DNA of 47,882 bases, taken from IMG/VR virus record IMGVR_UViG_3300029585_000017; one strand, 5' to 3'. Origin of the DNA: a virus. Of this stretch, positions 21,494 to 21,883 are shown piece after piece; the stretch's first letter is position 1, and the number at the start of each line of letters is the position of its first letter. The notes beneath the pieces were generated by a model that was not told where the DNA came from, ran no database searches, and saw only the letters and a program-made list of their open reading frames with translations. The position numbers and the translations under genes were made by a program.

Positions 21494-21540
21494 TTCATTT
21501 TCCTTACAATAGGTAGAGAGACAGCATCTACGCTGGTCAA

Positions 21541-21626
21541 TCGGACTATAGAATAGTCGGATGTTCTACAATCGGATGTTAGCTAGTGGGATGTAATCAC
21601 TTCGGATGTTTGGGCATTCGGAGTTA
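21541..21626. repeat. Iteron array: six T(C/G)GGA(T/C/G) units phased every 15-16 bp; three are exact TCGGATGTT
   Basis: Units start at 21541, 21557, 21572, 21587, 21602 and 21618, counted directly. Confidence 0.8.
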
Positions 21627-21883
21627 CGACGGTTACTTGTTACCGACAAGCCTAGCTTCGAATTAAAAGTTCGATACATTCCATATGTAGTGCCTATCTA
21701 ACCCTCAAGGCAGGAGTGACAATAGCTGCGCAACTACTTAACCGTTCAGGGTACGGCACAAACCCTCACGCAGACCTACTGTCTCTCTGACAAGGCGCGA
21801 TTGTGCTAGTAGTACTAAGGTGGCGAGCCGTTTTCCATATCGCCAACGGTGAGGTTTACCTTAGAAGGGTACTGCACTCGCTA

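Follow-up and report, generated by a model that had tools for sequence, protein, structure and literature searches.

The 47,882-nt viral stretch of DNA recorded as IMG/VR virus IMGVR_UViG_3300029585_000017 (hereafter the window) carries, at positions 21515-21788 of the minus strand, what is very probably the gene of a structured RNA belonging to a family linked to a small protein of 99 aa (ORF99) encoded beside it. As far as sequence comparison can tell, the RNA and ORF99 form a self-contained two-part module that is shared by many phages and is accessory, because close relatives of the window lack it. The pair appears to be undescribed, since nothing in Rfam 15 or in the searched literature, ~8.3 million papers and preprints in full text, describes the RNA or the module. 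The initial annotation, based on the letters only, regarded the 390-bp region that includes this element as intergenic DNA bearing six phased iterons, for which a replication origin or a cooperative operator of the nearby sigma genes was proposed, with an RNA role on the minus strand as a side remark. It is the side remark that has been borne out, by helices that covary and by G.U pairs that are tolerated on one strand only; the region is indeed devoid of protein-coding open reading frames (ORFs), although it can no longer be called intergenic in the strict sense because it includes an RNA gene. Judging by its sequence, the window is a Zobellviridae-like Vibrio phage.

Linkage Between the RNA and ORF99

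The family was recovered through the protein: 80 IMG/VR loci were fetched in this way, in most of which the ORF is followed by a gap of 250-500 nt, and reading these gaps revealed a shared architecture on the strand of the ORF. Two search models were used, a covariance model of the 5' domain (R1) built from the helices S1 and P3 only and a sequence-only model of the repeat platform (R2). R1 matches 81 of 87 sources, in every case on the same strand as the ORF, and these include at least 16 loci that were not part of its seed. It also matches 7 of the 9 loci found in 185,579 species genomes; the latter are mostly contigs of metagenome-assembled genomes (MAGs) of up to ~40 kb, which are probably phage, plus one isolate genome of Legionella maceachernii. 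No false positives were obtained with R1 in 640 kb of unrelated phage DNA. R2 gave 93 platform matches across 96 sources, again always on the ORF strand, and neither R1 nor R2 found a match in two sister phages without the insert.

The linkage also holds when it is followed from the RNA to the protein. A 19-nt pattern of the pseudoknot found six viral contigs, all six of which encode the ORF, and in metagenomes it found 38 stretches, 11 of them strong R1 matches, with the ORF present in 9 of the 9 that have room upstream and the other two lying at contig ends. Only R1-confirmed stretches were kept since the pattern produces many chance matches in GC-rich coding metagenome DNA; likewise, only 3 of the 77 matches to the 15-mer TCCGATTGACCGAWT were real and the rest were due to chance, and an exact 20-mer from the clade of the window had no match in IMG/VR. 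Altogether, the RNA-ORF99 pair is found in over 100 phage and metagenome loci. ORF99 is the only protein conserved across 82 loci, whereas the downstream gene varies; genes with roles in replication or recombination are frequently seen nearby (DNA polymerase A, clamp loader, gp32-like, RecT, DnaB, AAA_24). Among GenBank phages, 13 of 50,697 records encode the protein, all of them Vibrio phages related to the window (1.264.O and the PS32B/PS35B isolates). In loci L010, L019 and L087 the RNA is located upstream of the ORF instead of downstream, and the RNA is therefore not simply a 3' untranslated region (UTR). Variations in the spacing of the two parts were also observed, since one or more ORFs lie between the RNA and the protein gene in L036/L039, L068, L075 and L178. 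A separate known RNA, int-alpA (Rfam RF02996), was detected above its gathering score (51.6 bits) at 4386-4452 of the plus strand of the IMG/VR contig L017, ~1.2 kb downstream of the module.

Comparison of close relatives delimits the module in the window. Over the element stretch the window is 83-87% identical to phages 1.264.O and PS32B/PS35B, and an alignment of three phages carrying the insertion shows that positions 21494-21797 are strongly conserved, with compensatory changes, whereas 21798-21883 is deleted in PS32B-4 and rewritten in 1.264.O. The slightly more distant sister phages 468E53-1 and 521E56-1, with ~90% nucleotide identity in the helicase gene and the same helicase/sigma/sigma/polymerase layout, possess neither the 99-aa ORF nor the 390-bp stretch: the helicase and sigma genes of 468E53-1 directly overlap, and in 521E56-1 a 58-aa ORF alone stands between them. 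Because both parts are missing from the sister phages, the 99-aa ORF and the 390 bp are regarded as an accessory insertion of ~690 bp.

Architecture of the RNA

The whole structured RNA of the window comprises 274 nt (21515-21788, minus strand; boundaries from a search for the closing helix P1 and from motif mapping), within the 255-403 nt of the family (median 314). The perfect inverted repeat reported in the initial annotation, AGAGAGACAG at 21515-21524 and CTGTCTCTCT at 21779-21788, is 100% complementary over 10 bp and does enclose the element, as it corresponds to P1, the closing helix of the RNA. When G.U pairs are allowed the helix reaches 12 pairs, between the 5' strand AGAGAGACAGUA (21777-21788, the right-hand arm of the inverted repeat) and the 3' strand UGCUGUCUCUCU (21515-21526, the left-hand arm). 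In other loci a P1 of 10-31 bp is found at the same place with locus-specific, unrelated sequences, and it abuts the 5' domain in 53 loci. Over 52 distinct helices its pairs consist of 802 Watson-Crick, 72 G.U and 22 A.C (p = 2e-7 for the strand), and the excess of G.U over A.C fixes the strand of the RNA. P1 is followed, after a GG bulge at 21775-21776, by P2, in which UCUGCG (21769-21774) pairs with CGUAGA (21527-21532); the G.U pair of the window in this helix becomes G-C in PS32B-4 and 1.264.O. The P1/P2 junction of most relatives is a conserved asymmetric internal loop (5'-GGCG / 3'-GA). A canonical kink-turn was considered at this junction and discarded: the composition (5' GGCG-A/U, 3' GA) is suggestive, but the base-pair register does not fit and the window presents the GG bulge only.

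The 5' domain contains an H-type pseudoknot (21741-21766, minus strand) in which stem S1 is formed by AGGGU (21762-21766) and ACCCU (21748-21752) and stem S2 by GCCGU (21753-21757) and ACGGU (21741-21745), with UUGU (21758-21761) as connector L1 and GA (21746-21747) as linker. Among 69 distinct sequences, 25 S1 and 36 S2 sequence combinations occur, nearly all of them complementary, and the pseudoknot parse score is 9.0 compared to 5.85 +/- 1.23 in shuffled sequences. All five pairs of S2 vary on both sides even though S2 was left out of the search model R1, and in close relatives CCGU/ACGG of S2 becomes CUUU/AAAG. The pseudoknot is followed by the hairpin P3 (UAGUUGCGCAGCUA, 21723-21736, minus strand), which is 95% paired over the 69 sequences, all five of its pairs also varying on both sides. 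In the alignment of the 5' domain, 86% of cells are paired compared to 60% in shuffles, and the covariation score is 0.678 compared to 0.193 in shuffled alignments (reached by 0 of 500), slid controls staying at or below 0.14. At its gathering thresholds Rfam 15 identified nothing in the window, and relaxing the limit to E <= 10 for the region brought up only a microRNA (miRNA) match attributable to chance. A different pseudoknot-like arrangement had been noticed in the initial annotation, between the ORF99 stop and the RNA. Its nested pairs are all present (GGCGA at 21822-21826, CCGTT at 21828-21832, TCGCC at 21840-21844 and AACGG at 21845-21849), but they fall in a non-conserved minus-strand spacer (21789-21883) located outside R1 and R2, and it is the pairing at 21741-21766 that constitutes the real pseudoknot.

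The Repeat Platform

The repeats that gave rise to the iteron proposal are exactly where they were reported, with a spacing of 15-16 bp on the plus strand: TCGGACTAT at 21541, TCGGATGTT at 21557, 21572 and 21602, TGGGATGTA at 21587 and TCGGAGTTA at 21618. On the RNA strand they read AAC-(A)UCCGA and make up the 3' platform (21534-21626, minus strand), composed of six units of 15-16 nt of the form ..AAC-(A)UCCGA.. (21615-21625, 21600-21610, 21585-21595, 21570-21580, 21555-21565 and 21534-21548) and ending in UCCGAUUGACCA; the R2 match extends over 21534-21634 of the minus strand (44.4 bits, E = 6e-12). Matches to TCGGATGT with at most one mismatch are not enriched over the whole window (32 compared to 27.5 +/- 4.7 expected), while four same-strand matches of this type lie inside 53 bp, for which the chance in the window is ~1e-5 by the author's Poisson estimate. 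As the window-wide count is at chance level, the signal consists of this clustering together with conservation.

In the family, the platform has a conserved length of ~100 nt and 37 diverse loci can be aligned nearly free of gaps. The consensus consists of ~12 units of ~7.5 nt in two forms, NCCGAWUR and NNRWAAC, with UCCGANURACCA at the end; regularity is greatest in the window copy, which has six double units of 15 nt. Across related loci the density of CCGA is 28.7 per kb in the platform domain compared to 2.9 per kb in the flanks (~10x), and its complement TCGG occurs at only 1.4 per kb, so that CCGA is strand-specific. Spacings between CCGA motifs are 7-8, 15-16, 22-23, 30 or 38 nt, the first and the last being separated by 76 +/- 1 nt in most loci, and the strongest period in a Fourier test of the platform is 7.5-7.75 nt. 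The platform is G-poor (17.6% G compared to 24% C). RNAalifold found no conserved pair in it, and the hairpins seen there in single sequences are not conserved. An unpaired periodic array of conserved length is the signature of a site for a multi-subunit RNA-binding protein, and by analogy with the targets of TRAP and CsrA the repeats would thus bear the signature of a single-stranded platform for a protein of this kind.

Two other readings of the repeats were set aside. One is a CsrA sponge on the plus strand, where TCGGATGT holds a CsrA-like GGAUGU; the orientation of the family tRNAs, the G.U bias and both R1 and R2 all point to the ORF strand. The other is a platform that codes for a peptide or resembles transfer-messenger RNA (tmRNA), in which no codon periodicity is seen and stop codons are present.

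Variable Center and tRNA-Like Modules

Between P3 and the platform lies a variable central cargo region (21627-21722, minus strand), which in the window holds plain hairpins only, e.g., at 21658-21674 and 21630-21645; the stem of the former is wholly swapped for another complementary pair in 1.264.O. Of 53 confident family RNAs, 21 contain a standard tRNA at the center and 11 a circularly permuted tRNA-like module (in the order T arm, capped acceptor hairpin, D arm); 6 show a T arm only, and 15 show nothing that resembles a tRNA. The window belongs to the last group: ARAGORN found no tRNA in it, and its copy of the RNA has no tRNA-like module with T arm and D arm. The nested tRNAs occupy a fixed position, vary in identity and share the orientation of the ORF. 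Those of loci L005-L086 are mostly for codons starting with A (Ile-GAU being the commonest, then Asn-GUU, Thr, Arg-UCU/CCU and Ser-GCU), together with several Gln and one suppressor with a UUA anticodon (L081). Two fused permuted units were observed in L053 and L057. The permuted modules score 30-36 bits with the Rfam model of YrlA, under its gathering score of 69, and the match involves the tRNA-like part only and not the Ro-binding stem.

The Partner Protein ORF99

The gene of the partner protein (21884-22183, minus strand) starts in overlap with the primase/helicase stop. Its product matches Pfam DUF6847 (PF20935) over profile positions 66-141 with 33.4 bits (cut-off 27, E = 5.4e-8), NCBIfam DIP1984_fam (NF038048) with 42.2 bits, under the cut-off of 70, and, weakly, the uncharacterized structure PDB 3KDQ. 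In metagenomes, 194 homologs of ~100 aa were found, all 120 of those listed having a precomputed PF20935 annotation. The phage proteins of ~100 aa lack approximately profile positions 20-65, and full-length members of ~150 aa are reached only at E ~1e-6 to 1e-5; on these sequence grounds the ORF99 family is classified as a distinct short subfamily of DUF6847/DIP1984. A profile search gave 193 clusters at 50% identity, and among the 150 listed roughly one in four is a tandem fusion of two domains, ~210 aa long (200-230), which argues for a dimer or a higher oligomer. A few longer fusions also exist among the proteins P0121-P0257; one of them has 1521 aa and is matched over five separate stretches.

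AlphaFold2 places helices at residues 3-25 and 54-81 and strands at 29-38 and 41-50, and the best folds retrieved by Foldseek are prefoldin beta subunits and 3KDQ. ORF99 is accordingly predicted to be a prefoldin-like coiled coil of the helix/beta-hairpin/helix type, and from this predicted fold and the tandem fusions it probably forms oligomers. Invariant residues are found at both ends of the chain (L3 A4 L7 L8 R9 R10 K11 E12 L13 K16 and L68 R69 D72 I75 Q76 W80), the most conserved segments being LAEALLRRKEL and LRLxDxxIQxxNW, and in the model these two ends would come together at the tip of the antiparallel coiled coil. ORF99 has no PHROG match and no PADLOC match (defense or toxin), and the searched literature assigns no role to DUF6847/DIP1984.

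Genomic Context in the Window

The genes around the module are read on the minus strand in the order primase/helicase (22183-23841), the 99-aa ORF (21884-22183), the ORF-free 390 bp (21494-21883), sigma region 2 (21236-21493), sigma region 4 (20934-21239) and family A DNA polymerase (18986-20944). The sigma factor is thus split into two small overlapping genes, of 85 aa for region 2 and 101 aa for region 4, and the polymerase gene comes directly after them. The region 2 gene has its ribosome-binding site (RBS) AAGGA at 21501-21505, 9 nt past the end of P1, and its start codon at 21491-21493. The initial annotation noted no convincing sigma-70 promoter for the sigma genes. Neither a promoter of this type on the minus strand nor an intrinsic terminator was found between 21494 and 22183.

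On the plus strand, a good match to a sigma-70-like promoter (TTGAAA-16-TACAAT, 10 of 12 positions) spans the sigma gene start at 21483-21510, and its -10 element is TATAAT in both relatives (1.264.O and PS32B-4); a transcript from this site would be antisense to the RNA gene and would bear UCGGAUGU repeats (CsrA-like GGA). Next to the helicase gene there is a 376-aa AAA+/STAND-like ATPase (23981-25111, minus strand), and in relatives the ATPase at that place is labelled just 'ATPase' or is swapped for other genes, which makes the stretch upstream of the helicase gene another variable part among relatives. Another 15-nt tandem repeat, TTGTTATTATTACCG, was detected by Tandem Repeats Finder at 27970-28028 (3.9 copies, 65% matches), overlapping the ORF at 27915-28382; should this genome contain a repeat element that acts at the level of DNA, for example an origin, this one would be a putative candidate.

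Comparison with Known Systems

Among the closest known counterparts are the Y RNAs of the YrlA type (RF02553), which occur in bacteria and phages and are the partners of Ro60/Rsr. Like the new RNA, they are modular with a terminal closing stem; the circularly permuted tRNA-like center is common to YrlA and 11 of the 53 family members, and in both systems a dedicated protein partner is encoded alongside. The partner of YrlA is Ro60, whereas that of the new module is a 99-aa coiled-coil protein, and Y RNAs possess neither the pseudoknot domain nor the periodic platform of 100 nt. A scan of 14 proteins of the window, in which only one of the largest ORFs was not represented, revealed no TROVE domain, nor was one found in the neighborhoods of L085 and L086, and up to E <= 10 the YrlA and Y_RNA models matched nothing in the window, relatives reaching 23-36 bits compared to the gathering score of 69. 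The first unit of the window platform, CUCCGAAUG, and the last, UUGACC, resemble the Ro60-contact motifs GGUCCGA and GNCGAAN0-1G (PMC4201824), which in Y RNAs are located within the terminal stem. This likeness is a lead only. Both sequences are present in the window, but without the leading G and in a context devoid of conserved pairs, and by inspection only ~4 bp are possible between the two.

The module has also been compared with larger phage RNAs and with repeat RNAs. GOLLD and ROOL, known from phages and prophages, are large structured RNAs that form RNA-only multimers and frequently occur together with tRNAs or contain nested ones (PMC12286853 for background). Both they and the new RNA are large structured phage RNAs linked to tRNAs; the new one is far smaller (255-403 nt), comes with an obligate partner protein and bears an unstructured platform of repeats, and the GOLLD and ROOL models of Rfam matched neither the window nor 20 related loci. 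CsrB and RsmZ carry GGA repeats for CsrA, and the trp leader carries GAG/UAG repeats that wrap around the TRAP 11-mer. They resemble the new RNA in displaying short motifs at regular intervals in mostly unpaired RNA, and the mechanism proposed below for the platform and its protein is drawn from this analogy, although motif, period and partner differ and the new platform forms part of a larger RNA fold; the CsrA-like GGAUGU is on the plus strand only and hence not on the RNA strand. Type III toxin-antitoxin systems (ToxIN, CptIN and TenpIN) likewise place a small protein gene beside a direct-repeat RNA, and phages are known to carry mimics of type III antitoxin RNAs. Their repeats are of 34-45 nt and precede the gene of a ToxN/AbiQ-type endoribonuclease, whereas the new ones are of 7.5-15 nt, usually lie downstream of the gene and are found inside a larger fold; additionally, Tandem Repeats Finder detected no array of 34-45 nt at the element, and ORF99, without a PADLOC match, is predicted to be prefoldin-like. 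No tmRNA, which would combine a tRNA-like domain with a reading frame for a tag peptide, was found in the window by ARAGORN or Rfam, and platform positions spaced 7-8, 16, 23 or 38 nt show no codon pattern. The module is thus outside iteron origins, YrlA, type III toxin-antitoxin systems, CsrB sponges, tmRNA and GOLLD/ROOL.

Proposed Mechanism and Alternatives

In the mechanism proposed here, the RNA would be co-transcribed in the helicase/ORF99/sigma operon and then freed by cleavage at the P1/P2 stem in the manner of RNase III, an enzyme that releases stable RNAs from precursors. An oligomer of ORF99 would bind the single-stranded periodic platform, and the resulting RNA-protein particle would display the pseudoknot domain and, where present, the elbow of the tRNA. 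That ORF99 itself is the protein bound to the platform is a plausible proposal held at slightly less than even confidence, a host protein being the alternative binder. The role is probably an accessory function early in infection, although this is speculative, as are two more precise candidates: tRNA mimicry that decoys or tethers a host tRNA-recognizing enzyme or a defense nuclease, and a function linked to the replication and recombination genes around the module. Any one specific role of the RNA-ORF99 module is doubtful when taken singly. The most detailed version, in which a prefoldin-like ORF99 oligomer is wrapped by the CCGA/GAAC platform while the pseudoknot domain and, where present, the elbow of the tRNA or tRNA mimic engage a host tRNA-recognizing enzyme or a defense nuclease that targets tRNAs, so that the phage ribonucleoprotein (RNP) acts as a portable device for anti-defense or host takeover and as a Ro60-independent counterpart of Y RNAs, is offered tentatively and is itself unlikely in all its details. 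Taken together, the explanation that blends the RNA gene, the binding by ORF99 and a role is judged somewhat better than an even bet.

The interpretation as DNA iterons, in which a phage initiator or repressor would bind the double-stranded repeats at a replication origin or sigma operator, is very improbable. It draws on the six direct repeats adjoining the primase/helicase and DNA polymerase genes and on the tendency of the module to sit amid replication and recombination genes in other phages as well. Nevertheless, the sister phages keep the same replication and sigma genes without the element, which makes an origin or a sigma operator unlikely because neither would be dispensable, and the gene downstream of the element changes from locus to locus. 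The repeats follow a lattice of ~7.5 or 15 nt (7-8, 15-16, 22-23, 30 and 38 nt in the family) that is out of phase with the DNA helix, whereas iterons spaced by about 11 or 22 bp would place the bound protein on a single face. Moreover, the RNA in which the repeats are embedded is closed by helices that covary and that accept G.U on one strand only, and the polarity of the motif relative to the ORF is constant. Another explanation is a cis-acting element of the mRNA, which would serve the gene downstream as leader or attenuator, or else act as a 3' UTR controlling the translation or stability of ORF99, with autoregulation by binding of the protein to the repeats. The operon that contains the element shows neither a detectable promoter nor a terminator, P1 ends 9 nt ahead of the RBS of the sigma gene, and autoregulation through binding of the own mRNA is common in phages, as in the case of gp32 (PMC10690425). 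Yet an RNA of 255-403 nt with a pseudoknot, several helices and tRNA-like cargo goes far beyond the needs of an operator, the downstream gene varies and some loci present RNA and ORF in the opposite order, so this explanation is considered improbable.

An equally improbable alternative is a cassette for the expression or processing of phage tRNAs, whose flanks would fold, protect or process the nested tRNA and of which the window copy would be a relic after tRNA loss. The standard tRNAs of varied identity at a fixed position in 21 of 53 RNAs speak for it; against this, the 15 RNAs without tRNA keep every other domain, including three diverged lineages of Vibrio phages with compensatory changes, the 11 permuted capped modules cannot be aminoacylated, and the dedicated protein partner is left unexplained. 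A sponge for a host factor is unlikely, but less so than the preceding explanations: the platform would bind a host oligomer specific for single-stranded RNA (e.g., Rho, RNase E or Ro60/Rsr), and ORF99 would be a chaperone, stabilizer or co-factor. An unstructured, G-poor platform of fixed length, with 76 nt from first to last CCGA, resembles a Rho-loading site, and CCGA followed by A/U and then U fits the cleavage preference of RNase E (RN|WUU); the resemblance of the first and last units to Ro60-contact motifs points the same way. Conversely, the NNRWAAC units lack the YC dinucleotides of the kind bound by Rho, a Ro60/TROVE gene did not turn up among the proteins scanned and there is no counterpart of the Ro-binding stem of YrlA, whereas the strict two-way linkage with ORF99 and the lack of any other conserved gene favor ORF99 as the partner.

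Several observations weigh against the preferred reading, that of an RNA gene whose product is bound by ORF99. The strand and the structure of the RNA rest on comparative analysis, and the statistical significance of the 7.5-nt period is no more than modest (p ~0.016 with A content, ~0.2 with information content). The window copy has its GG bulge in place of the GGCG/GA loop of the family, and it carries no tRNA-like module, so a role in tRNA mimicry cannot be universal. For the protein, the AlphaFold2 model has a mean predicted local distance difference test score (pLDDT) of 68, which means modest confidence, and the Foldseek matches are statistically weak (E ~0.2-0.9). Finally, the phage has its own sigma factor, and therefore a promoter of another type may lie inside the spacer.

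Concluding Remarks

Phased repeats beside replication genes may be features of an RNA and not origins, which calls for caution when such arrays are annotated in phage genomes. The linkage to an RNA provides the first clue to the function of DUF6847/DIP1984 proteins, and the 13 Vibrio phages that carry the protein gene are natural experimental models, with known Vibrio hosts and sister phages without the module. If the tRNA-mimic reading is true, the tRNA-mimic module of Y RNAs exists outside the Ro60 system. If confirmed, the RNA-ORF99 pair would represent a new and widespread class of phage RNP, built from a pseudoknot RNA, a slot for tRNAs or their permuted mimics, a repeat platform and one small protein.

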